Of a DNA stretch of 40,625 nucleotides, positions 1-36,291 are shown in pieces. Each line of letters opens with the position of its first letter. Positions within the stretch are counted from its first letter, which is position 1. The notes under the pieces were generated by a model. The model was not told the origin of the DNA and made no database searches. It saw nothing but the letters and a program-made list of their open reading frames with translations. The position numbers were made by a program, and so were the translations under genes. This DNA comes from a virus (lineage: Duplodnaviria > Heunggongvirae > Uroviricota > Caudoviricetes), in IMG/VR virus record IMGVR_UViG_2541047915_000011; one strand, given 5' to 3'.

Positions 1-2148
1 TTACACCATACTGTTAACCTGGCCGGGTAATTCGCTAGCTGGAATACGAAAGGTATACCAGGCATAACGACAGCGTTTCCACAGGCTGGAGAAATGGAGA
101 TGATAAAGGCAATCTGCAATAATTTCGTTATCTGGATATAAAGACTCGGCAAAATGTGTCCAGCGCGCACTGAGTTTCATGTTAAACAGTTTTTCATCTT
201 CTTTGTTACCATACAGGCGCGACAAAGTAATCATTGCTTCGAGCGTACCTTTATTCGCTTCTTCTTGTACCTGTTGGAGGTGCAAATGAGCAAGTGAGAG
301 TTCTTTCACCTCAAAGATATTAAGTAAAAAAAGCCCCCATGCTTTTTCATGTCCAGCTTCATGAGCCAGAAATAAATTGTCAAGGAGATTTTTTTCATAA
401 ATAGCCCGTGTTTCTTTAGAAATTTCTTGTTTATTTAGTGCCTGGTAGCAGATAGCAATGCTAAAATAAATATTTTGTAGATCTTGTTGATGTTCGCTAT
501 AACCATAATTTTTTACCAGTGGATAAGATACCGAGCTATGGAAATTTAGGTCATCTTGAAGTATTTTAAGTGCCCGTCGAAAATACTCCAAAGCTGTAGA
601 TGGTTCATAAGGTAATTTTGTATTGTCTTCCTTATCCAAATATTCAAGAGCAACTAAATTTAATGCGGCAGGAATATTTCTTTGCTTACCAATTGTCGCA
701 AGCGGAATGAAATAATCAGAAAGGTCAAACCAACTCAAATCTTTTATTGCCGACCGCCAATTATGATTGTATTTAATGTCACTAGTTTTTTCCAGCCAAG
801 CATCGCCCTGCCCTTCATCTTTTTCAAAACCCAAAATACCCTCTCGCTGGAAAAACCCCCTATAAATAACAGGTGTAGCATAAGTTGTATTCTGTGAATT
901 TTGGCAGATAAAATTATATATCCAGAATGAATCTGGATAATAACTTAATGCAAATTTTATCGCGTACGCAGTGTAATAATTATTGAGCTTCATGTCTTCC
1001 ATCACCGCTCGCTGTATACAGCACCACAACTTATCGTGATCGTTCTGCTTGTTATAGCAGGCAAGTAACCACTCTAGGGCATTATGGCGACATTCCTGAA
1101 ATTGTGCGTACTGAGCAATATTCTCTGCTAAGTCGATTGCATATTGTTGCTCCTCGGGCGCAATGTCCTCAATGCTGACATCTCGGTAATCATCCCACCA
1201 AAGTAAGAGATCCATATAGTCATGTTCTTCGGTAGATAAGTGCTTACAGGTTACTGAATCCAGCAATTCGGAAATTTCTTTATGCGACCCTCCCCAGCGT
1301 GGCATTCGAAATGGTATATATTCAACAAAAGGATAAAAAGTGTGAGGAAAAATAGTCAGGCAAACAGAAAGCCAATATTTTTGCCCACCATCATCATCAT
1401 ACTCAGGAAGTATATTGGGGCGAGGCAAAACGGGGCATATTGCATGCTCAAACGAAAGTCCGGAATACGCCATCAACGCTTCCACTTCTTGCGGGGAGCG
1501 GCGGTGATAATTTTTCAGTGCGATCATTAATGGTATTCCTGCGACACTATCACCGTTAAGGTGTGCCGCCAGCCAGGCTGGCTGACCAAATACTTTTGAG
1601 TTGGTGCTGGTAAGTAATGCAGCCATCCATTGTCGTGGGTCACAATCAATTGCTTTAAGTGTAGCGATGACCATTTGTTCATTACATGCACCAGCACAAA
1701 GCCACATTGCATGTGTGGTATCATTTGCCCAGCCATAACTGCGATATAACCATGCACGGTGATTCCAGTATTGTGCTTCGGCAAGCCAGGCATGTGTAGA
1801 ATGAGGTCTTGCTTGCTGCCAGGTTTTAATGAGTCTTAAACCTTCTGTTCCGGCATCAACTAGCGTGTTCATATCATAAAAATAGTTGCACATTTGGGTC
1901 CAGGATAAAAAATAGCGCTTTTCAGCCTGACGAGAAGTGAAACTCTCCTGTAATACCTGGTTATAAATTTCATCTAGTTCCTGATAACGTTTTTCTTGTA
2001 ACATATAAGGAATATTTGCGATTTGCCATTTTCTCTCAAGAGTATTAAGTGGCATTTTTTGGTCACACATCTTTTGCATTGCACTGAGTAAACGAGCATC
2101 CTGTTCCATAGATATCCTTTTAATTAGGTTCAAAAATTTTAAATTCAT
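1..2148 (-). CDS. Hypothetical large protein (715 aa by longest ORF; an internal ATG at about 2109 with an AAGGA Shine-Dalgarno would give about 702 aa). Trp-rich N-terminal region, TPR/Sel1-like helical repeats in the C-terminal third. Distal gene of a 3-gene operon.
   Basis: Complete ORF with stop at 1-3. Overlaps or abuts the upstream 238-aa gene. AT-rich relative to yegQ. No family assigned from sequence alone. Confidence 0.6.
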   Translation of the reverse strand: MNLKFLNLIKRISMEQDARLLSAMQKMCDQKMPLNTLERKWQIANIPYMLQEKRYQELDEIYNQVLQESFTSRQAEKRYFLSWTQMCNYFYDMNTLVDAGTEGLRLIKTWQQARPHSTHAWLAEAQYWNHRAWLYRSYGWANDTTHAMWLCAGACNEQMVIATLKAIDCDPRQWMAALLTSTNSKVFGQPAWLAAHLNGDSVAGIPLMIALKNYHRRSPQEVEALMAYSGLSFEHAICPVLPRPNILPEYDDDGGQKYWLSVCLTIFPHTFYPFVEYIPFRMPRWGGSHKEISELLDSVTCKHLSTEEHDYMDLLLWWDDYRDVSIEDIAPEEQQYAIDLAENIAQYAQFQECRHNALEWLLACYNKQNDHDKLWCCIQRAVMEDMKLNNYYTAYAIKFALSYYPDSFWIYNFICQNSQNTTYATPVIYRGFFQREGILGFEKDEGQGDAWLEKTSDIKYNHNWRSAIKDLSWFDLSDYFIPLATIGKQRNIPAALNLVALEYLDKEDNTKLPYEPSTALEYFRRALKILQDDLNFHSSVSYPLVKNYGYSEHQQDLQNIYFSIAICYQALNKQEISKETRAIYEKNLLDNLFLAHEAGHEKAWGLFLLNIFEVKELSLAHLHLQQVQEEANKGTLEAMITLSRLYGNKEDEKLFNMKLSARWTHFAESLYPDNEIIADCLYHLHFSSLWKRCRYAWYTFRIPASELPGQVNSMV

Positions 2149-2836
2149 TCCACGGCAATTTTTTCCAGTTACTGGATGGATCTTTCAACCATGCAGTGAC
2201 TTCCTTTAAATCACGGTTCGCAGTGGCGACGGGGGTATCGTATATCATTAACCATTTTTGTCGGGCGCGAACATAAGCACTGGCATAATCTTCCCATGAA
2301 GCGAAACAATCTTGTGCTCTTTGAGCATTCAGTAATAACACTATCCAGGCCTGGTTTTCATCGCACCAGCCTAAACCGGCGATGCAACGAGTTAAAAAAG
2401 CAGTGCGCATACAGTCAAACGCCAGCCCATCCAGAACCTGGCCTTGTGCTGCCAGTTGTTCGTAAAAATCATGTGGAGAATTACCAAGCCCTGTAGCCCA
2501 GCGCTGTAATATAACGCCAATTTGTTGACGGAAATCTTCGTTGCTTTGGTAAGTTTCTGTTCCTAGCTCTTGTTTAACCTGTAGTGCAAGTTGTTGACGC
2601 TTATCATCAGTCAACTTTAAATCTAACGTGAAGCCATTTACTGACAGTCCATTACGACGAGCAACTATATCACCAATTGCTAATGCCCACTTACGTCTCT
2701 TTGTTGCTCGTCTTTTGTCCTTGATTAGATCCTTTTCTTTTTCTTTAGCAATAAAAGCATCGATTTGTGGTTTGTTTTTTTTGTATCTATAGATAAAAAT
2801 AAATATTGCGACCAGGAGAACAATGATAAGACTCAT
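2120..2836 (-). CDS. Hypothetical protein, 238 aa, with N-terminal hydrophobic signal-anchor/TM segment (LIIVLLVAIFIFIY) followed by a basic stretch
   Basis: ORF track. Start overlaps the stop of the upstream 404-aa gene (TAATG-type overlap at 2834-2838), suggesting translational coupling. Confidence 0.6.
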   Translation of the reverse strand: MSLIIVLLVAIFIFIYRYKKNKPQIDAFIAKEKEKDLIKDKRRATKRRKWALAIGDIVARRNGLSVNGFTLDLKLTDDKRQQLALQVKQELGTETYQSNEDFRQQIGVILQRWATGLGNSPHDFYEQLAAQGQVLDGLAFDCMRTAFLTRCIAGLGWCDENQAWIVLLLNAQRAQDCFASWEDYASAYVRARQKWLMIYDTPVATANRDLKEVTAWLKDPSSNWKKLPWNEFKIFEPN

Positions 2837-4050
2837 TATTTTTCAACCTCTGACAGGGGTAAGTAATGAGATGTCTGTAATGTCAAACTCTCTATCTCAA
2901 AGGAAATGTTGCTGATATTTTGACCTGCAAATTGCGGATGCCACTCAGCGCCAGGGAATAACATTTCCGCAGAAGTAGCAACTATAGGGTCAATAGCATT
3001 AAGATAATGTAACTTATCAGGTGCGCTGTGTAACAGTAACCACTGCAACTCCACTGAAGGATTTGTAAAATGTTCTAATAAATGAAAGTTATTATGTAGT
3101 ACGCTTAGTAAAAAACTGGTTTCGTATACTTCCGTTGCATATTTCCACCCCTGATATTCAGGTGTATTTTCATAAACAATACCCATACCTTCACAATCAC
3201 TATGTCGAACTGCTTGTGGTGATAATAGTTGCAAAAGAGACAAAACATCGTCCGCATATTTTTTAACTGGATGACGATTTTGCTTACCTTTTATTTGATC
3301 AATTTCAAGTGAATCACCAACAACATTGAGAGCAATAGTAACATGAGGAATATTATTATTATCACGCAAACTGAATAACCGTAATTTATGTTGCTCAATT
3401 TGATTTGCATAATACTCACCATAACCACCGGTAAGATTTTTTCGATCATCAAACTGGCCTACGCAATGTTGCATATGCCATGATTCATAAGCCATTTCAC
3501 GACGAAGGTTCGAATGACTGGCATCAAACTCAACAATTTTTCCGTCTGGCACATCAAGTATTGACTTTACAGTATTTTGTTCACTCGGCTGCCACCCTTT
3601 CTCGCGTCGTTGAAGCATCTTTTCATGCTCTTCTTCACGCATTCTGAACGCAACGTAGCAGGTTATGCGCTGTAGTTTTGATTCCAGACGGGTACCACAT
3701 TTCCTGGAAAGAAATTCCACCAACTCCCGTTCTTTGGTTAATATTTGTTGATGATCGGTTTCGATATAATAAAGTGTCGCAGTTGATACTGAGGCAGTAT
3801 TAAACTTCGATACCAGCCATTCCGGGATTACATCATCATTTTTATTAAACAGTGAATATTCTGCAAGCGAGTTAATTTGTTGCACCATTGGAAAGTCACT
3901 AATTAGCCATCGATAAAAATGGTTGAGTAACCATTTTTGGATGGTCTCATTATCCTGGCGAAACAGACTTCTTTGCAAAATTGCTGTTTTTACTTCCGGG
4001 GCATTAATTACATCCCTTGCATTATAATTCTGGTGAATATTTCCAGTCAT
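2836..4050 (-). CDS. Hypothetical protein, 404 aa, first gene of the 3-gene operon
   Basis: ORF track. Preceded by a 487-bp AT-rich intergenic region (4051-4537). Contains an HCVGQF...GGYGEYY segment. No confident family call. Confidence 0.6.
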   Translation of the reverse strand: MTGNIHQNYNARDVINAPEVKTAILQRSLFRQDNETIQKWLLNHFYRWLISDFPMVQQINSLAEYSLFNKNDDVIPEWLVSKFNTASVSTATLYYIETDHQQILTKERELVEFLSRKCGTRLESKLQRITCYVAFRMREEEHEKMLQRREKGWQPSEQNTVKSILDVPDGKIVEFDASHSNLRREMAYESWHMQHCVGQFDDRKNLTGGYGEYYANQIEQHKLRLFSLRDNNNIPHVTIALNVVGDSLEIDQIKGKQNRHPVKKYADDVLSLLQLLSPQAVRHSDCEGMGIVYENTPEYQGWKYATEVYETSFLLSVLHNNFHLLEHFTNPSVELQWLLLHSAPDKLHYLNAIDPIVATSAEMLFPGAEWHPQFAGQNISNISFEIESLTLQTSHYLPLSEVEK

Positions 4051-4537
4051 AACATCCGCCCGTGTTTATTATATCACTCAAAGCAATAATTGTTGACTAT
4101 AGATTTTTTATCTAAATCAGCATGGTTGCAGGTACATACTCAAGTAAGCCACTCAAGAAAATAACGTAAACTCAATAGTGGCAGCGTCACAAACTTTGGA
4201 AATTATGTCTTATATTTGCAGTTTATTTTAGTGAATAATTGAGATAAATGACATTATTTTACATCCTCAATAATTCAGGCTGTAAGAGGACGGCAAATAC
4301 ATTCATAATTATCAGGGGATGAACATTCAGGAAAGTAGTCAGTATCGTCAACTTTTTCTTTTATCACTACATGAAGATTTCGTGTAGATACTCCCATCTC
4401 TGCCACTTCTCCCCTCACATTTACACTGGAGCTAAACCCGCCGATTGCGCTACAATGCCCGCCCTTAAAGTGGGGGCACTCCCCTAACCGCTTCATCAGG
4501 TGAAGCGGCTCTGACCTGTCATCAGAACGAGAGAATT

Positions 4538-5939: not shown

Positions 5940-5983
5940 ACCGATCACATACAGCTGCATTTATTAAGGTTATCATCCGTTTC
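5940..5983 (+). promoter_or_regulatory. Putative cyaR promoter region (CRP-dependent in E. coli)
   Basis: TATCAT -10-like hexamer at about 5971-5976, about 7 nt before the sRNA 5' end, and a TCACA half-site upstream. CyaR is known to be CRP-activated. Position inferred, not verified. Confidence 0.3.
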
Positions 5984-6070
5984 GCTGAAAAACATAACCC
6001 ATAAAATGCTAGCTGTACCAGGAACCACCTCCTTAGCCTGTGTAATCTCCCTTACACGGGCTTATTTTTT
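5984..6070 (+). ncRNA. cyaR: CyaR (RyeE) Hfq-dependent small RNA
   Basis: Sequence GCTGAAAAACATAACCC...ACCTCCTTAGCC...CCCTTACACGGGCTTATTTTTT matches my recollection of E. coli CyaR, including the CCUCCU seed and an intrinsic terminator. Lies between yegQ and ogr as in E. coli K-12. Confidence 0.7.
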
Positions 6071-13103: not shown

Positions 13104-13697
13104 TCAATTATGTAAATCTTTTGTTTTATGTTCTTTGGCGTGTTGTGACAACAAATGGCTATAGCGTTTAAGCAAAATATTAGAAAGATTAAGCTCATTC
13201 ATGAAGTGTTCTTCTAATAAGTAACCATCAATATCAACTTTAATATCATTACCACTTTTCATCTTCTGTAACGTAGATTTTACACGCTCCAGCAGGATGC
13301 TTTGCTCATGGTAATAGTCCATAAGAAGAGTAACATCCTCTTTATCAAGCTTACTTAATTCGCTGAAGTAGGATTTAAACACTTTATCAGTCTGGTTTAA
13401 TGCAATCTGTAAGCGAGGCCCCCCTAATGATTTGACATTAATGGCAAAAGGCTCGCCAACAAAATGCTCCGAATTTTCGTCAAAGCCAATATATCTCGTT
13501 TTATCAAGAAAAGTGAGAGCGCGATGGTTATTAGCGATTTCATATGCAAACATTGTTCTGATACTGTCCCTCTCAGCCTCCATGCTTATATCATCACGAT
13601 GATTTGTATAAAATATATTTCCAACAAAGAGAACCATAGCAAGAATCACTGAACTTGCCTCCCAGTTAATATTTTTTAATCGTCGCTTAGTAAACAT
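13104..13697 (-). CDS. Z/fun-locus protein, 197 aa, N-terminal signal-anchor/TM helix, function unknown
   Basis: AT-rich ORF in the variable slot between G and FI. AAGGTG Shine-Dalgarno about 5 nt before the ATG. Hydrophobic segment SSVILAMVLFVGNIFY near the N-terminus. Confidence 0.7.
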   Translation of the reverse strand: MFTKRRLKNINWEASSVILAMVLFVGNIFYTNHRDDISMEAERDSIRTMFAYEIANNHRALTFLDKTRYIGFDENSEHFVGEPFAINVKSLGGPRLQIALNQTDKVFKSYFSELSKLDKEDVTLLMDYYHEQSILLERVKSTLQKMKSGNDIKVDIDGYLLEEHFMNELNLSNILLKRYSHLLSQHAKEHKTKDLHN

Positions 13698-19718: not shown

Positions 19719-20504
19719 ATGTTCAGTGATAATGTGACTAATGCGTGGTGGTTTATCTCTTTGTATCTATTTTTATTAATAGCATTAACATTTATTACCT
19801 TTGGTAAAAGTAATCTTATGAGGTTTATTGCACATCATTTCAATTTTGAGTATTCAGACAGAAAGTTAAAAATGCTCGACAAAAAATGGCGCGACATTCA
19901 ACTATTTAAAATAATTAACGGAATCAATGTATCAGGCATCGAAGATGTGAGAATGATACAGCAGGGGCTGATTGATGGAAAACTAAAAACATCGTATTTT
20001 TTTCTTACTCGCTTCTGGGGTGACATAACAAAACCACCACACATAATTAAAACAATAATTGTAATTCTGTCCAGCATTATTTATATTCTCTTCGCATGTT
20101 ATATACACAACAAACAATCCGCTATAGTAAGAGATGCCATAGGCATACCATATAAAAATATGATGTACTATGTTTATAGTGACAAAGTTCTTTTATCCTT
20201 CAACAATAAAACAGTTGAATTCAATAAAACTTATAGCCATGCCGATTGCAAGAGGCTACGAAACGTATTTATAAAAGACACACTTCCTGAGATCGCCTGC
20301 AATAAGCTCTTACAGCTAAACGAGGAGGACTCGGAATGGTTAAGTCAGGAGATTAAAGATAATAACAGCCAAAAAAAAGCATTATTAATAATATCCCTCA
20401 TCTATTTCATTTCAGGTCTGGTTATATTCCTGTCATATACAAAATTCCTTTACGCCAATAAGAAGGTTGTAGAATACAAAGCATCAAATAAAAATCACTC
20501 ATAA
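19719..20504 (+). CDS. orf30-locus polytopic membrane protein, 261 aa, function unknown
   Basis: AT-rich ORF on the opposite strand between V and S, the slot of P2 orf30. GAGGAG Shine-Dalgarno at about 19707-19712. At least three hydrophobic TM-like segments (N-terminal, central, C-terminal). Confidence 0.7.
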   Translation: MFSDNVTNAWWFISLYLFLLIALTFITFGKSNLMRFIAHHFNFEYSDRKLKMLDKKWRDIQLFKIINGINVSGIEDVRMIQQGLIDGKLKTSYFFLTRFWGDITKPPHIIKTIIVILSSIIYILFACYIHNKQSAIVRDAIGIPYKNMMYYVYSDKVLLSFNNKTVEFNKTYSHADCKRLRNVFIKDTLPEIACNKLLQLNEEDSEWLSQEIKDNNSQKKALLIISLIYFISGLVIFLSYTKFLYANKKVVEYKASNKNHS

Positions 20505-29867: not shown

Positions 29868-30485
29868 TTAACTCTCAACCTCAATAAAAATATTTTTGGG
29901 CCCATTACTAATCGATATACCGATTTCATCCAAAACAGCCATCATTTTTCTCTGATGAGTTTTATATTTATAGTCTTTATTTTCCTCTGTAATATGTGCA
30001 TTGGCTTCCTCAATAACACATTTGATTCTAGATATTATTTCTAGATAATCTCTCGAAACAGATATATCACCGCCTTGCGCTTCAGGGAACATAACCCTAT
30101 ACCATCTAAAAAAATTAACTTTCTCTGGATAGATGCTACTTCTTTTAGTTAACTCAGCACTTGCAAATTCTCTAAACATCGTCAGATGACTAGTGTAATT
30201 ACTATTATTATTATTTTTAACTCCAGCGTTATATGTCATCAAAGCAATCATAACACCAAAAACGGTAACAAAAGTTGTTATAAGCCATCCAAACGCCTGA
30301 AAATACATTACTATACCAGATGTTTTTTCCGCAAAAAATTTTAAGCACTGGCTATCGAAGCATATATCACGCTCATATAGCTTTTCATTCTGAATAGTTT
30401 CAAAAAGAGAAATTAGCGAAAAAATCAAAAAAAGAGCTGACGACACACCGACAATATATTTGAGAAGTCTAATATTTGCATTCAT
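29868..30485 (-). CDS. Small 2-TM membrane protein (205 aa), candidate effector partner of the adjacent reverse transcriptase
   Basis: ATG at 30483-30485 overlaps the RT stop (ATGA overlap). Hydrophobic helices at about residues 10-28 and 58-84. Strongly AT-rich. Confidence 0.7.
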   Translation of the reverse strand: MNANIRLLKYIVGVSSALFLIFSLISLFETIQNEKLYERDICFDSQCLKFFAEKTSGIVMYFQAFGWLITTFVTVFGVMIALMTYNAGVKNNNNSNYTSHLTMFREFASAELTKRSSIYPEKVNFFRWYRVMFPEAQGGDISVSRDYLEIISRIKCVIEEANAHITEENKDYKYKTHQRKMMAVLDEIGISISNGPKNIFIEVES

Positions 30486-31672
30486 AATGGTTTTAAAGAT
30501 GCCAATCTAGATTTAAAACACTCCAGTTTTTCTTTAAATGATTCAGAGCGAGTAAGAATAATCATCTTATATCTCGTCAAATCATATTTTCTTTTATACC
30601 AATGTTTATTTTGATTACCTTTCGAATACGACAACTCTAAACTTTTTATAGCTGCATCAATCACAGCAACATCTCTTTTAGATGGCATCGGTTTTATTGC
30701 CTGCAACTGTTTCTTGAATGATTCATATTTTTCATGCCCAACACGGCCAAGCTTATTCACTCTCCCCATACATCTATTGAATTCTTTTCTGTATGCAACA
30801 CTTGTTTTTGTGTTATTTTTTGCCGCCAGTAATTTCAAATTATGTATAGATGCCCTGATTCTTTTGACTTCATCGGATGGTAGTCGAGGTGAGTCATAGT
30901 CAACTCTTAAACCATGTACTTTTATAGGTTCAGATGAACAGTGAAATATTTTAGTTTTGTGCTTATTTATCGGCAAGTCATGCTCAGAAAGCATCCTCTC
31001 TATATGGCTTTGCATTTGAGAAAAATCATAATTACTTATTTTAGATGACACGGTAATATCATCTACCAAACGCGTATAAACAAGTCCTTTCCTCTGCGCA
31101 CGTCTTACCACATCCCCTTCAACAGCGAATAAACACAAAGTTGCTATATAGCTTGATGTTAAGGCCCCCTGTACGACAAAATCATCCTTAGTACATATAT
31201 CCACCAAGTATTCAAGAGCCTCATCCTTAATATGCAATATCTCCTCAAACACGCTCCTAACCAGATCTCTATGGATATTATCGAAAAAATTACTTATATC
31301 CACCTTGAGAACTGTTTTTGCTCCACAATGAGCCTTTGCACATGAAACATAGTCACGTTTGACATTAGAATTTAACACATCATTTTTACTGGGAACTGAA
31401 CCAAACAAAAATGAAGGAAAAACAACCAATTCCTTAAAGATACGTTTATTAATTCTACTCTGTAATAATCTCATTTTAGGATGCAGGGAGTAGACAATCC
31501 GTTTGCTTCCGTCAATTTTGGGAATTTCTTTTAGAGTATATTTCTCATCTAATGGTAATTCTGCAATAGCTTTAAGCTCTTCAACAGAAATCGATAAAGC
31601 CTTTGACAACTTTTCAAGTGTTGTGATAGGAGCATTGGATTTGCTGTATGGTTTAAATTTATCCATAAACAT
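30482..31672 (-). CDS. Reverse transcriptase, retron-like (UG/Abi-type not excluded). About 396 aa from the ATG at 31672; the ORF track extends to a TTG at 31756.
   Basis: RT motifs in order: IPKIDGSKRIV, CAKAH, VLKVDISNFFDNI, QGALTSSYIATL, LVYTRLVDDITV (catalytic DD), INKHKTKIF, IKVHGLRV, then a basic C-terminal domain of about 135 aa. Start is ambiguous; the upstream extension overlaps a structured inverted-repeat region. Confidence 0.8.
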   Translation of the reverse strand: MFMDKFKPYSKSNAPITTLEKLSKALSISVEELKAIAELPLDEKYTLKEIPKIDGSKRIVYSLHPKMRLLQSRINKRIFKELVVFPSFLFGSVPSKNDVLNSNVKRDYVSCAKAHCGAKTVLKVDISNFFDNIHRDLVRSVFEEILHIKDEALEYLVDICTKDDFVVQGALTSSYIATLCLFAVEGDVVRRAQRKGLVYTRLVDDITVSSKISNYDFSQMQSHIERMLSEHDLPINKHKTKIFHCSSEPIKVHGLRVDYDSPRLPSDEVKRIRASIHNLKLLAAKNNTKTSVAYRKEFNRCMGRVNKLGRVGHEKYESFKKQLQAIKPMPSKRDVAVIDAAIKSLELSYSKGNQNKHWYKRKYDLTRYKMIILTRSESFKEKLECFKSRLASLKPL

Positions 31673-33004: not shown

Positions 33005-35287
33005 TCAAATGGGTAACAAAAATCCAGGCCACTCATCAGCGACCTGATAATTGAAAGATTTCCCGTAATAATTTACGGTCGCGCCACGCGCCAGCGCCTC
33101 AAGCTCCCATCGCTGCGGCCTGATACCGTTCTGAGCAAGGTCAACGCGGATACGGGTAATTTGCATTCTTTCCGACCGGGTCAGTCTGGCCGATGGTGCA
33201 ATTTCATGTGGTTTTAACGGGCTTCCGTTTCTTTGCTGACGATTTGGTGTTCTCAGGTCGTGTTTTAATGCCCCCCTGAGCGCCCTCACGACCTCCGTGT
33301 CATTCCATTCGATAACACCGTCATCAACCAGATTAAGCACTGCTGCGGCGTGTTCAGAAGGTGTGGGAGCCGGTAACGAAGTATCACCACCGGTGAGCTT
33401 TCCACAGTTATTGACAGGACTCCGAGGCGCGGCGATGCCGCTTTTTAAAGTCAAAGGCTCAACGACCGGAACTTTCGGCACAATGCGCCAGTCCGTCGTT
33501 CTGGTGATATGAATATGACGCGCGCCGAGATGCGGCGCGTAAATGCCGACCACTCTCTCGACTTCTTCCTCGTACTCGTTAACGTCATCCGACGGGCTAC
33601 GGGCGACCCTGACAGTCTGACAATCGCGCGGGACATTTGCCCCGCCCTGCGCGCTGATATACAACGCAAAATCACCACTGTCTGCAGCGGCGCGTGCAGC
33701 CTCGACGCGCTCGTCAAACTCATCAGCAATGCTGACGCCGCGAGGCAATTTGCGTAGTTCACGGTAAGCCCCCATTGTCGGCAGACCAACCGTTTTAAAT
33801 TGCGGAATGCGCCACGTTGACGCCCATGCGGTAACAGCCGCTGCAGTATCTTTCAGCGGCCTGCCGGTATCGTTATCGAGCTGACCATCCAGTGCATAGC
33901 CGTCGATGTTTTTTGAAATGTATTTCGCGATATACCCCGCAGCACCGCCCCGGTTAAGATGTTTTGCCTGAAAACGGTTTCGCGCAGCTCCTCTTTCGTC
34001 GCCATCCTCTTTGAGCGCGTAGCGACGCATGATTTCAATAATCTGGTTACGCTGGCGTGGATTACAAAAAAGCATCATATGCCAGTGCGGCGTTCCGTCG
34101 TGGTGTGGCTCGACGACTCGCAAACCGTAGACCTGTAAATCATTATCCTTGAATGCCGTGCGCATCAGGCTCCAGATACGGCAGAGATATCGCTGCGCAT
34201 CCTTTGGATTAAATGCCTCATCATTCCAGCCGTGATTAAGCTGGACGGTTTTACTTTCGCCTTTTCCGACCTGACGTGTCGGGTGATACTTTGACGGCGC
34301 GGTCAGCGTGATAAACATCCCCACATCGCCCTCTGCGGCGGCGTAACGCTCAATACCGGCAATGGTGTTCATCAGCTCCATCCGGCGAATTTCAGGATTA
34401 GAAATACTGCCCATAACCTTACTGATAAGGTCGATGCGCTCGCCGGTTTCCCTGTTTTCAAGGTCACACGATTTAAGAAATTCCAGATTTGCCTGGCGGC
34501 GCGCACGCACATCACGAATGGCATGTTTACTGGCATAAGGAGAACGGTCTTTATTCACCTCCCCGACAGCAATCAGTAACGCCTCATGCCAGCGCATACG
34601 CTGGCCTTTAAGCTGACTAATCCACCACTCATCGTTAAACAGGCGGGCAATGGCAGAATATGCCTGCCTCGTGGTCATCTGTCCTTTACGGTATTTTTTC
34701 CAGAAAAGCGGGGAAATATTGAAAGCACGTGCAGCGCCAGCAACATGACCATACAGATGCGCCTGCGCCTCATCTGTAAACAGCGATTCTTTCTCGCCAT
34801 GTGCATCAACCCAGGCATCGCAGAGTTCCTCATACATCATGAAAAGCTGCGATGAAATACGGGCGGCAAACTTTTTCAGCTCCTTGTCATTCATCCCCGG
34901 CAGACGCGCATAATGGTCACGCTCTGCCAGAAACAGCAACGACGCGTCGGTGTTCATTTCATGGCGCTGATTCACGCGCTCAATACGCGGCCATAAACGG
35001 CGCTGAAAAGTGGATGTGAGGAAATAAAACCCGTGTAGCGGGCTTTTATTGCGCCGTATGTAGTCATAACGTGAAGTAAACAGCGAGCGCAAAAAGTAAG
35101 GCAGGCGGTTAATCGTGGATAAAACACCTTGCACCTGACGCATCTCGTCACGTGTAAGGGGTCTTTCGCGCCCGACAGCCTCGCGTGGCGTATTCCATGC
35201 ATAAGCACCGGTAAACGCCTTACCGGTGCCTGCGGCAAACGCAGACGGAGGTACGCAGGTGTATTGCTCCTGGAAAGAATGACTCAT
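33005..35287 (-). CDS. A: Replication initiation protein gpA (rolling-circle initiator)
   Basis: 760 aa, P2 A size and position. Start overlaps the stop of the upstream PP-loop gene. Confidence 0.9.
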   Translation of the reverse strand: MSHSFQEQYTCVPPSAFAAGTGKAFTGAYAWNTPREAVGRERPLTRDEMRQVQGVLSTINRLPYFLRSLFTSRYDYIRRNKSPLHGFYFLTSTFQRRLWPRIERVNQRHEMNTDASLLFLAERDHYARLPGMNDKELKKFAARISSQLFMMYEELCDAWVDAHGEKESLFTDEAQAHLYGHVAGAARAFNISPLFWKKYRKGQMTTRQAYSAIARLFNDEWWISQLKGQRMRWHEALLIAVGEVNKDRSPYASKHAIRDVRARRQANLEFLKSCDLENRETGERIDLISKVMGSISNPEIRRMELMNTIAGIERYAAAEGDVGMFITLTAPSKYHPTRQVGKGESKTVQLNHGWNDEAFNPKDAQRYLCRIWSLMRTAFKDNDLQVYGLRVVEPHHDGTPHWHMMLFCNPRQRNQIIEIMRRYALKEDGDERGAARNRFQAKHLNRGGAAGYIAKYISKNIDGYALDGQLDNDTGRPLKDTAAAVTAWASTWRIPQFKTVGLPTMGAYRELRKLPRGVSIADEFDERVEAARAAADSGDFALYISAQGGANVPRDCQTVRVARSPSDDVNEYEEEVERVVGIYAPHLGARHIHITRTTDWRIVPKVPVVEPLTLKSGIAAPRSPVNNCGKLTGGDTSLPAPTPSEHAAAVLNLVDDGVIEWNDTEVVRALRGALKHDLRTPNRQQRNGSPLKPHEIAPSARLTRSERMQITRIRVDLAQNGIRPQRWELEALARGATVNYYGKSFNYQVADEWPGFLLPI

Positions 35288-36291
35288 TCACATACACCGG
35301 CATAGACACTACTGCAAACGGCTTTATCATTCGCCGAAGCCAGTAAATCAAACTGAGTACCCCCACGCGTTGTCATTGTCCAGTCATGGTAGGTTTCAAT
35401 TCCGTATGCCTCGACTGTTACAACCTCAATACGACGTTCTGCGCGTAACGGATCATGTGTGGATGGGAAAAAAGTGGAATTTCCCCGACGGGAGCACGAC
35501 GCAACCAGTCGTTCCCATTCAGCAACCCGCTTTATTTCCTCCGGCCACCGGCGAAAAATTTCTGCCAGTTCAGATTTACGGACATGAATACATGGCATAC
35601 AACCAACACGGCCACACCCCTGCTGATATAACGGATTTGGCTTAATGTCATGTCTTCTGGCTATTGCAAATACATCTTCATGCTTCCAGTGCAAAATCGG
35701 GCGATATACATGCAATCCGGGGGTGTTGTCTGCATCCTCTTCCCAGACAGGTAAAGCTGCGCGTGATGGCGATTCCTGAGCACGCACTCCCTGCCAGCTA
35801 ATCACTTCCTCAAATTCATTGAGTAAAGGCAGGATTACCTGAGAACGCACGGGTTCATGTTTCAGTTCAAATGTGCAAAATCTGGCTTTGGTTGATGGGA
35901 AACGCCCCTTCCACAGACACAAATCAAGAAACGGGATACCCGTTGGTTTGAGAATTTCCAGCGCACAACTGATGCGCTGGTGCGCTTCTTCTTCCGACAT
36001 TCCACAATCGTTAACCAACAAATCAGGCCATTTGGTCTGGATAAACTTGCGCTTTGATTCAATCCGGCAGGAAAAATCAGCCCTGACCCTTTTAATTGGG
36101 CCAAGCCGTTTTTCCAGATAATCCAGATATTTCATTGTCTGTGGATGTTCATGTCCCGTATCAGCAAAAACCGGCAATATGGGTACATTTTCTTCAATAG
36201 CGACAAGCCACTGAGCAAGGCTGTCCTTTCCACCTGAAACAAAAATAACATTGATGGTATTTTCAGTATGGCAACGAGCATCAGTAATCAT
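35284..36291 (-). CDS. PAPS-reductase-like PP-loop ATP pyrophosphatase family protein (335 aa)
   Basis: PP-loop motif FVSGGKDS near the N-terminus and a C-terminal Cys cluster (CGRVGCMPC). 4-nt overlaps with orf83 upstream and A downstream. Confidence 0.75.
   Translation of the reverse strand: MITDARCHTENTINVIFVSGGKDSLAQWLVAIEENVPILPVFADTGHEHPQTMKYLDYLEKRLGPIKRVRADFSCRIESKRKFIQTKWPDLLVNDCGMSEEEAHQRISCALEILKPTGIPFLDLCLWKGRFPSTKARFCTFELKHEPVRSQVILPLLNEFEEVISWQGVRAQESPSRAALPVWEEDADNTPGLHVYRPILHWKHEDVFAIARRHDIKPNPLYQQGCGRVGCMPCIHVRKSELAEIFRRWPEEIKRVAEWERLVASCSRRGNSTFFPSTHDPLRAERRIEVVTVEAYGIETYHDWTMTTRGGTQFDLLASANDKAVCSSVYAGVCE

Follow-up and report, generated by a model that had tools for sequence, protein, structure and literature searches.

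A conserved PcfJ-like, DUF1266 and DUF4034 gene module in an accessory islet beside yegQ of Escherichia coli

The virus record IMGVR_UViG_2541047915_000011 comprises 40,625 nucleotides of DNA, hereafter the window, which opens with three adjacent minus-strand genes upstream of the Escherichia coli gene yegQ. These genes, g1, g2 and g3, form a real, conserved and uncharacterised operon encoding a PcfJ-like protein, a membrane-anchored DUF1266 protein and a large DUF4034 protein with a TPR-like solenoid, respectively. The set that stays constant across bacterial loci is a PcfJ-like protein, a DUF1266 domain and a large TPR protein, and the three proteins very probably work together. A module of PcfJ-like, DUF1266 and DUF4034 proteins is described in no paper found. 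Tentatively, the module is read here as a membrane-tethered complex in which g1 would be a GNAT-like transferase held by a TPR scaffold. For DNA beyond the window, the complete genome of E. coli AH21I008 (L001), which is 100% identical, was used.

The three genes are a co-inherited unit in which g1 and g2 are often fused. Homologues of g1 form 224 clusters from Enterobacterales, Burkholderia, Variovorax, Pseudomonas, Lysobacter and Rhizobium, and natural fusions of g1 with DUF1266 account for at least 12 of these clusters. When 80 species loci were retrieved and scanned with hidden Markov models built from the alignments of this analysis, 79 had DUF1266 either directly after g1 or fused to it, and the one exception was cut by a contig end. 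The order g1-g2-g3, with overlapping or nearly abutting junctions, is kept in Burkholderia, Lysobacter, Klebsiella and Salmonella. Furthermore, a scan of one genome per species recovered relatives in at least 181 species representatives of the Beta- and Gammaproteobacteria. The first-pass annotation of this DNA had proposed asking whether the three genes always occur together, and the unit is indeed kept far beyond E. coli. A candidate g2-g3 fusion (P0135) was rejected: a deletion joins residues 1-194 of g2 to g3 from about residue 103, so this protein provides no clean Rosetta-stone evidence.

Two architectures were identified among the 80 loci. In Type A (36 loci), g1 and g2 are followed by a DUF4034 gene; this type occurs in enterobacteria, Variovorax, the Burkholderia cepacia complex, Rhizobacter, Iodobacter and Chitinilyticum, and includes the Lysobacter-type fusions. 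In Type B (44 loci; L050-L095 and L008), DUF4034 is missing and a conserved protein of about 750-870 residues abuts g1 on its upstream side in 37 of the 44, most of the remaining seven being cut by contig ends. Type B was found in Pseudomonas, Trinickia, Cupriavidus, Ralstonia, Delftia, Acidovorax, a Treponemataceae metagenome-assembled genome and others. The upstream protein (about 780 residues; e.g., L008 5668-8010) has numerous invariant Trp residues as well as a TPR motif at the C-terminus. The possibility that it is a diverged DUF4034 protein was rejected (hhalign probability 5%), and no hidden homology was found among g1, g2, g3 and the ~780-residue protein. From these alignments, Type B looks like a non-homologous replacement of the scaffold subunit.

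Each protein of the triad matches one Pfam family. The g1 product matches PcfJ (PF14284) at residues 141-268 with 26.3 bits, against a gathering cut-off of 25; all 28 aligned homologues also match PcfJ (best E 5.4e-8) and pass or approach the Pfam threshold. Its invariant residues (E185, E189, H195, C196, G198, GGYG208-211, R224, R229, Q252, K254, G255, K256, Q257 and N258) cluster in a core at about residues 141-300, and further conserved helical regions lie at the N- and C-terminus. The g2 product matches DUF1266 (PF06889) at residues 94-229 with 68.7 bits (gathering threshold 27). Its N-terminal membrane anchor, already noticed in the first-pass annotation, has the sequence MSLIIVLLVAIFIFIYRYKKNK, which is hydrophobic and then basic, and this pattern is kept in nearly all stand-alone homologues. 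The topology is predicted to be N-out, with the helical DUF1266 domain on the cytoplasmic side. The g3 product matches all 274 positions of the DUF4034 profile (PF13226) with 339.7 bits, against a gathering threshold of 21.3. The Trp-rich N-terminal region and TPR/Sel1-like C-terminus described for it earlier are both borne out, as residues 1-320 contain 4.4% Trp and the protein has a solenoid of helical hairpins with recognisable repeats of the TPR/Sel1 kind. The protein also has a PRWGGSH loop that is invariant and a C-terminal tail, ELPGQVNSMV, that is conserved.

The initial verdict that the proteins could be assigned to no characterised system still holds, because PADLOC yielded none, scans of the three proteins and of g4 (a fourth islet gene, described below) against NCBIfam and PHROGs gave nothing usable, and Pfam returned only PcfJ and the two domains of unknown function. 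The literature provided no functional description of PcfJ, DUF1266 or DUF4034; DUF4034 was mentioned in no paper found, and DUF1266 was found only in an H-NS regulon table, at a different locus. The Salmonella counterparts STM2133 and STM2135 were found only in lists or as a flank marker.

The possible function of g1 was approached by structure prediction on a natural fusion from Lysobacter (P0088, 37% identical to g1), in which one AlphaFold2 model spans both g1 and g2. The model has a predicted local distance difference test score (pLDDT) of 89.3 and a predicted template modelling score (pTM) of 0.81, and thus the g1 and g2 domains are confidently placed against each other. When the model was compared with the PDB using Foldseek, chains of the GNAT superfamily ranked first, with ESCO1 at E 0.36 and probability 0.92, and none of the matches was significant; PanZ, SpeG, the PAT GNAT domain, YhbS and L/F-transferase were among the others. 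The order of elements in the model, b-a-a-b-b-b-[QIKGKQN]-a-b-b, fits the GNAT order b1-a1-a2-b2-b3-b4-motif A-a3-b5 through b5. On this modelling, the core of g1 likely has a GNAT-like alpha/beta fold, g1 is the probable catalytic subunit, and GNAT-type catalysis is plausible.

From these observations we infer a physical complex, its catalysis, the donor, the target and a biological role, as follows. The three proteins would form one complex at the cytoplasmic face of the inner membrane. The enzyme would be g1, with a GNAT-type acyl-transferase fold in which the invariant QxKGKQN loop occupies the coenzyme A pyrophosphate site, beside an invariant E..E...HC cluster. The g2 protein would bind g1 and tether it to the membrane via its N-terminal anchor, and g3 would serve as a large scaffold or as a substrate-recognition or regulatory subunit. 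The complex would then acylate (or aminoacylate) a protein or a membrane-associated target.

Several observations weigh against this transferase model. The GNAT helix alpha-4 is absent from the predicted structure, and the segment Q252-I-K-G255-K-Q257-N258, at the place of motif A (Q/R-x-x-G-x-G/A), has Gln instead of Gly/Ala at the last position. None of the 28 g1 homologues matched a Pfam acetyltransferase model (Acetyltransf_*) at E <= 10, PcfJ being the only match, and a profile of the g1 alignment found no PDB sequence at E <= 10. Of 12 fusion proteins, 10 have no hydrophobic segment, thus membrane tethering is not essential everywhere. Deletion of STM2133 in Salmonella caused only a marginal change in swarming. 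By analogy with PanZ, g1 could also be a non-catalytic GNAT-like regulator.

This last point leads to a related reading, which is doubtful, that the module is a chaperone-linked adaptor without catalysis. The DUF1266 and TPR/Sel1 pair would hold g1 in place or control it, g1 being a GNAT-like binding protein; in K-12, a pair of this kind would serve DjlB and DjlC, which are membrane J-proteins, and the Hsp70 HscC. The K-12 cluster contains ybeQ (Sel1), ybeR (DUF1266) overlapping djlB, ybeT (TPR), ybeU (DUF1266) overlapping djlC, and hscC. In addition, g2 is 31% identical to YbeU and YbeR over 58-75 residues (E 2e-5 and 7e-5), and non-catalytic GNAT proteins do exist, PanZ being among the Foldseek matches. 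TPR matches of this kind are generic, however, and no J-domain or Hsp70 gene was linked to the triad in about 85 loci, among 132 neighbouring genes or in the islet. The dense invariant polar residues of g1 (E, E, H, C, R, R, K, K, Q and N) also look as if they belong to an active site and not to a binding surface.

In E. coli, the islet that carries the module is accessory and lineage-restricted. Its interior is present in 298 of 5426 complete E. coli genomes (5.5%), and is missing from the other 94.5% and from K-12. All 298 copies are chromosomal, single and at least 96% covered, and 295 of them are at least 99% identical. Carriers include Nissle 1917, UPEC 26-1 and A0 34/86, as well as the type strain ATCC 11775, which was found in the g4 search. 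This agrees with the proposal of an accessory islet beside a prophage integration hotspot, as a P2-like prophage lies just beyond yegQ-cyaR. Two findings had been named in advance as speaking against that proposal, namely that the genes are core housekeeping genes of E. coli, or that they do not occur together elsewhere; neither was made, since so few E. coli carry the islet and the three genes do co-occur beyond this species.

Aligned with K-12, the islet spans L001 7245-12446, equivalent to about -755 to 4446 in the window, where 5.2 kb stand in place of 21 bp of K-12 sequence. The stop codon of g3 is the exact first position of the window, and the islet is therefore cut at the left edge. 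Hence the initial placement of the islet at 1-4050, upstream of yegQ, was right for the three genes and too short as to extent, given that the islet has four genes and continues beyond the left edge. In L001, g3 is followed by about 55 bp, g4 and then yegP. The product of g4 has a signal peptide ending in ...SLPANA and followed by GC, contains three Cys residues, and has no match in Pfam, PHROGs or PADLOC. The gene travels with the triad in E. coli, as 305 E. coli genomes carry it. In Salmonella, a gene for a different secreted protein of 239 residues, non-homologous to g4, starts 5 bp after g3, and no secreted-protein gene follows g3 in Klebsiella or Burkholderia; g4 was thus left out of the core module.

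The site between yegP and yegQ is variable. Many other E. coli strains carry a ParD/ParE toxin-antitoxin pair there (L003 5425-6019). Strains with ParDE and strains with the islet have in common additional flanking sequence absent from K-12, 62 bp at the left end and 30 bp at the right, and these common flanks suggest a cassette exchange by recombination between the two contents of the site. Relative to K-12, the boundary between islet and core lies between 4446 and 4447, and positions 4447-4537 are the conserved upstream region of yegQ, common to all E. coli; ParDE-carrying strains share sequence with islet strains from 4417 onward. In K-12 itself, baeR and yegP lie directly upstream of yegQ, with a gap of 146 bp, in agreement with the first-pass annotation.

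Outside E. coli the setting differs. The triad of Salmonella and Klebsiella lies between baeR and yegQ, in the orientation opposite to that of E. coli and without yegP, and the Klebsiella (L011) and Salmonella (L014) proteins are about 57-66% identical to those of E. coli. Citrobacter loci (L017/L048) also carry g1-g2-g3 in the Type A arrangement. In these three genera the triad, oriented oppositely to that of E. coli, looks like a stable resident of the baeR-yegQ locus, so 'accessory' applies to E. coli alone. In K. oxytoca NBRC 105695 (L016), g3 is split into two open reading frames (ORFs), and g1 and g2 are intact. The triad matches its host in G+C content in Burkholderia, Lysobacter and Pseudomonas; values are slightly below the host's in Salmonella (53% vs 56%) and Klebsiella, and far below it in E. 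coli. Thus, the E. coli copy looks recently imported and the module itself old. E. coli probably acquired the module by horizontal transfer, together with the secreted-protein gene, into the variable yegP-yegQ site.

The location of the triad beside baeR raises the possibility, a very unlikely one, of an envelope or stress function tied to a neighbouring two-component system (BaeSR in enterobacteria, or other kinase/regulator pairs elsewhere); the triad might, for example, modify a substrate held in the membrane or periplasm when the envelope is stressed. In E. coli, Klebsiella, Salmonella and Citrobacter, baeSR is the immediate neighbour of the triad, and the Lysobacter triad lies between a kinase/regulator pair and creD. 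The membrane anchor of g2 and the secreted-protein gene after g3 in E. coli and Salmonella would also be in keeping with an envelope role. The 132 nearest-neighbour genes of the triad in 35 diverse loci represent 112 different Pfam families, and response regulators are the commonest of these. Yet their share is low (8 of 132), and about half of them are the same enterobacterial baeR. The E. coli operon is oriented away from baeSR, with a promoter-like site of its own. Moreover, the secreted proteins of E. coli and Salmonella are unrelated to each other and lack counterparts in Klebsiella and Burkholderia.

Taken alone, the E. coli setting suggests a role in conflict. Under such a reading, anti-phage or anti-plasmid defence or abortive infection would result when a TPR sensor triggers the membrane-bound g1, which then modifies a host or phage target. 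The E. coli cluster is patchy, AT-rich and horizontally acquired, and its site is variable, with ParDE in other strains and orphan immunity genes of type VI secretion system (T6SS) and contact-dependent inhibition (CDI) type in S. Typhi (PMC7400221). Furthermore, the adjoining P2-like prophage itself carries a retron, the PcfJ domain occurs frequently in phages and among 'polyvalent' conflict proteins, and TPR sensors are common in defence systems. A defence role, which the phage-challenge test proposed at first pass would imply, gets no support from the wider tests and is considered unlikely. With PADLOC-DB 2.0, g1 and g2 had no match and g3 had only a marginal one (PDC-S32, E 1.3e-3 over 80 residues), whereas the same library found the retron of the window at E 6e-177 as a control. 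None of the 132 neighbouring genes matched PADLOC at 1e-8. The G+C content is host-like and the neighbours are ordinary in Burkholderia, Lysobacter and Pseudomonas, and the copy in Salmonella and Klebsiella looks like a stable resident of its locus.

The lack of mobile carriage also argues against defence. Plasmid matches to the triad were limited to eight records, all non-mobilisable and 0.3-1.3 Mb in size; no triad was found on mobilisable plasmids, and a tblastn search of 50,697 phage genomes did not find it. IMG/VR records with g1 (L097-L106, 95-100% identity) were rejected as evidence of phage carriage, given that the calls of the P2-like prophage overrun yegQ; this boundary artefact could mislead towards a phage-borne triad. 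A more specific proposal is that the triad is a new class of conflict or immunity system, in which a host relative of PcfJ, a domain brought into cells by phages (jumbo phages with several copies included) and conjugative elements, is tethered by DUF1266, is controlled by interchangeable TPR sensors (of the DUF4034 or the ~780-residue type) and acylates a protein upon sensing an invader. This is improbable on present evidence; if true, it would provide a first function for the orphan families PcfJ, DUF1266 and DUF4034.

ParDE at the same chromosomal site in other strains, together with the tight coupling of the genes, would also fit a toxin-antitoxin or addiction module, in which g1 is a GNAT-type toxin (e.g., acetylating aminoacyl-tRNA) restrained by g2 and/or g3. 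This seems highly improbable. Known GNAT/RHH pairs comprise a toxin of about 170 residues and a small DNA-binding antitoxin, whereas the proteins here have 404, 238 and 702 residues, no RHH or HTH domain was found in g1-g3 with Pfam, and no PADLOC or toxin-antitoxin model matched. The stable g1-g2 fusion in many lineages misfits control by a labile antitoxin, and the split g3 of L016 leaves g1 still intact.

The features of the islet are listed in Table 1. The three minus-strand ORFs first described are present where expected, and only the start of g3 needs revision. The ATG at 2109 is the g3 start in RefSeq and in all homologues (702-708 residues) and is preceded, 7 nt to its 5' side, by an AAGGA Shine-Dalgarno sequence; since all three favour this ATG, a length of 702 residues is most likely. 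The g1/g2 junction has one nucleotide in common (TAATG), and the g2/g3 junction has a 29-nt overlap with the 715-residue start or a 10-nt gap with the 702-residue start. Accordingly, the genes are tightly coupled as judged from these junctions, and of the overlaps first reported at both junctions, that of g1/g2 is certain but that of g2/g3 is probably a short gap.

Table 1. Features of the yegP-yegQ islet; positions are those of the window unless L001 is named
Feature	Position	Strand	Description
g1	2836-4050	-	404 aa, PcfJ-like; listed ORF
g2	2120-2836	-	238 aa, DUF1266 with predicted N-terminal membrane anchor
g3	1-2109	-	702 aa (most likely start), DUF4034 with TPR-like solenoid; longest ORF 1-2148, 715 aa
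Best sigma-70 promoter-like site	4068-4096	-	TCAACA-17-TGnTATAAT, extended -10; L001 12096-12068
Islet-specific AT-rich upstream DNA	4051-4446		35.6% G+C; from K-12 alignment
g4	L001 7335-7949, left of window position 1	-	201-204 aa, secreted

The islet is clearly AT-richer than yegQ, as first observed (about 40% against 54% G+C). The individual values are 37.9% for g1, 40.7% for g2 and 40.4% for g3, with a third-codon-position G+C (GC3) of 0.30-0.35, compared with 54.3% and a GC3 of 0.65 for yegQ and 49.3% G+C for the whole window. The 487-bp AT-rich leader proposed for the operon was accurate for its islet-specific part, but its last ~90 bp or so are conserved DNA upstream of yegQ. The promoter-like site in the leader matches the consensus at 10 of 12 hexamer positions and lies about 20 nt from the g1 start, which means that the transcribed leader may be short; it is a consensus match only, and the region shows no excess of promoter-like sites over shuffled sequence. 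A 73-residue ORF in the leader (4275-4496, minus strand) was treated as spurious, and it overlaps the conserved yegQ upstream region.

Beyond yegQ, the small RNA CyaR/RyeE (Rfam RF00112, 100.7 bits) is encoded at 5982-6067 on the plus strand, between yegQ and ogrK, as expected for the locus. A complete P2-like prophage follows at about 6100-39900, between cyaR/ogrK and yegR, with the gene order ogr, gpD, tail, lysis, capsid, terminase, portal, replication gene A, cox, C-like repressor and integrase; K-12 retains only the ogrK remnant and a D-gene fragment of it. The retron lies at 29868-31666 (minus strand), in an AT-rich cargo hotspot between the portal and replication genes. Its PADLOC scores are E 6e-177 for RT_IV and E 2e-75 for the 2TM_IV effector, and it is labelled retron Ec48 family in RefSeq. 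The effector ORF has 205 residues in the window, compared with 235 PADLOC profile positions and a RefSeq gene of 708 nt (about 235 residues) in AH21I008, thus the effector of the window may be truncated at its C-terminus. Small AT-rich cargo ORFs occur near 13104-13697, after the tail-fibre assembly gene and at the position of the P2 Z/fun locus, and near 19719-20504, and a gene with a PAPS-reductase domain lies near 35284-36291. These last three positions are approximate, as they were mapped from AH21I008 and the same mapping was off for the retron effector.

The main significance of the operon is that three Pfam families of no known function (PcfJ, DUF1266 and DUF4034) make up one conserved module. 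It is carried, among others, by Salmonella LT2 and Typhi, by Klebsiella, by the Burkholderia cepacia complex and by B2 strains of E. coli, for instance Nissle 1917 and ATCC 11775. The module gains a testable shape, in which the putative roles are those of GNAT-like enzyme, membrane adaptor and TPR scaffold, with named candidate active-site residues, and g1 is linked to a domain which phages and conjugative plasmids carry in abundance. Should the enzyme activity be true, it would represent a new branch of GNAT-like transferases and might illuminate the DUF1266/Sel1/HscC cluster of K-12. Were the triad just a stable accessory operon of modest importance for physiology, the result would be an improvement of annotation and little more.

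In overall design, the closest parallel to the predicted complex is found in the eukaryotic NatA/NatB-type complexes, where a large TPR auxiliary subunit holds a GNAT catalytic subunit. The likeness consists of the predicted GNAT-like core of g1, with its Q-x-K-G-K-Q-N loop between the fourth strand and the next helix, and of the pairing of g1 with a TPR solenoid of about 700 residues (g3); it is an analogy and not a homology. Unlike GNAT proteins, g1 has no sequence-level similarity to GNAT Pfam models or PDB chains, its model lacks helix alpha-4, its motif A is atypical and it has an invariant His-Cys pair. The extra conserved helical regions at both termini of g1, and DUF1266 as an obligate third partner, further distinguish the module from GNAT and Nat systems.

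By sequence, g1 and its 28 aligned homologues are relatives of the PcfJ (PF14284) proteins of plasmids and phages. With the core motifs HCxGQF and QxKGKQN, 70 distant relatives were recovered from viral contigs of IMG/VR (L107-L176). Very large phages have many copies of PcfJ-domain proteins, with eight places in a 735-kb phage, four in a 290-kb contig and five in Vibrio jumbo phages, and Lak megaphages are a further case; phage records with such proteins are LR756501, MK250029 and PP083314. All of these viral proteins are annotated as hypothetical. The plasmid and viral versions stand alone or lie within larger proteins (900-2212 residues in the viral cases), one of them fused to ART-PolyVal, and no DUF1266 or DUF4034 neighbour was recovered at the viral PcfJ genes. 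In contrast, g1 is encoded on the chromosome and represents a separate subfamily that has an N-terminal domain of its own; it is accompanied by g2 in every case. 'Polyvalent proteins' of phages and conjugative elements have been described with two GNAT families among their domains (Iyer et al., 2017; PMC5512222), and PcfJ could be one of these two. The PcfJ domains inside very large viral proteins follow this polyvalent pattern. The g1 protein itself is not of the polyvalent kind, as it has a single recognisable domain, is chromosomal and was not found in phage genomes or on mobilisable plasmids.

The nearest orthologous system is Salmonella STM2133-STM2135 (t0737 being STM2135), which is about 60-66% identical to the islet genes at the protein level and has the same order, between baeR and yegQ. 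It differs from the E. coli copy in its opposite orientation and in a G+C content near that of its host. In a study of the Typhi 'yegQ locus', STM2135/t0737 is the flank of the islet of orphan T6SS/CDI immunity genes, and the Salmonella STM2133-2135 genes are treated as core flank and not as part of the islet (PMC7400221).

Finally, the K-12 cluster ybeQ-ybeR-djlB-ybeT-ybeU-djlC-hscC resembles the islet in that a DUF1266 gene is translationally coupled to its partner, with a Sel1/TPR gene alongside, and g2 is a distant homologue of YbeR and YbeU. The partner in K-12 is a J-domain co-chaperone with an Hsp70, whereas the partner in the islet is the PcfJ-like protein. The DUF1266 gene comes first in the ybe cluster and second in the islet, and the TPR protein of the islet is far larger than those of K-12 and carries DUF4034. 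Because the pairing occurs in both the ybe cluster and the triad, a DUF1266 protein and a TPR protein may, by analogy, constitute a reusable adaptor pair for different effectors.

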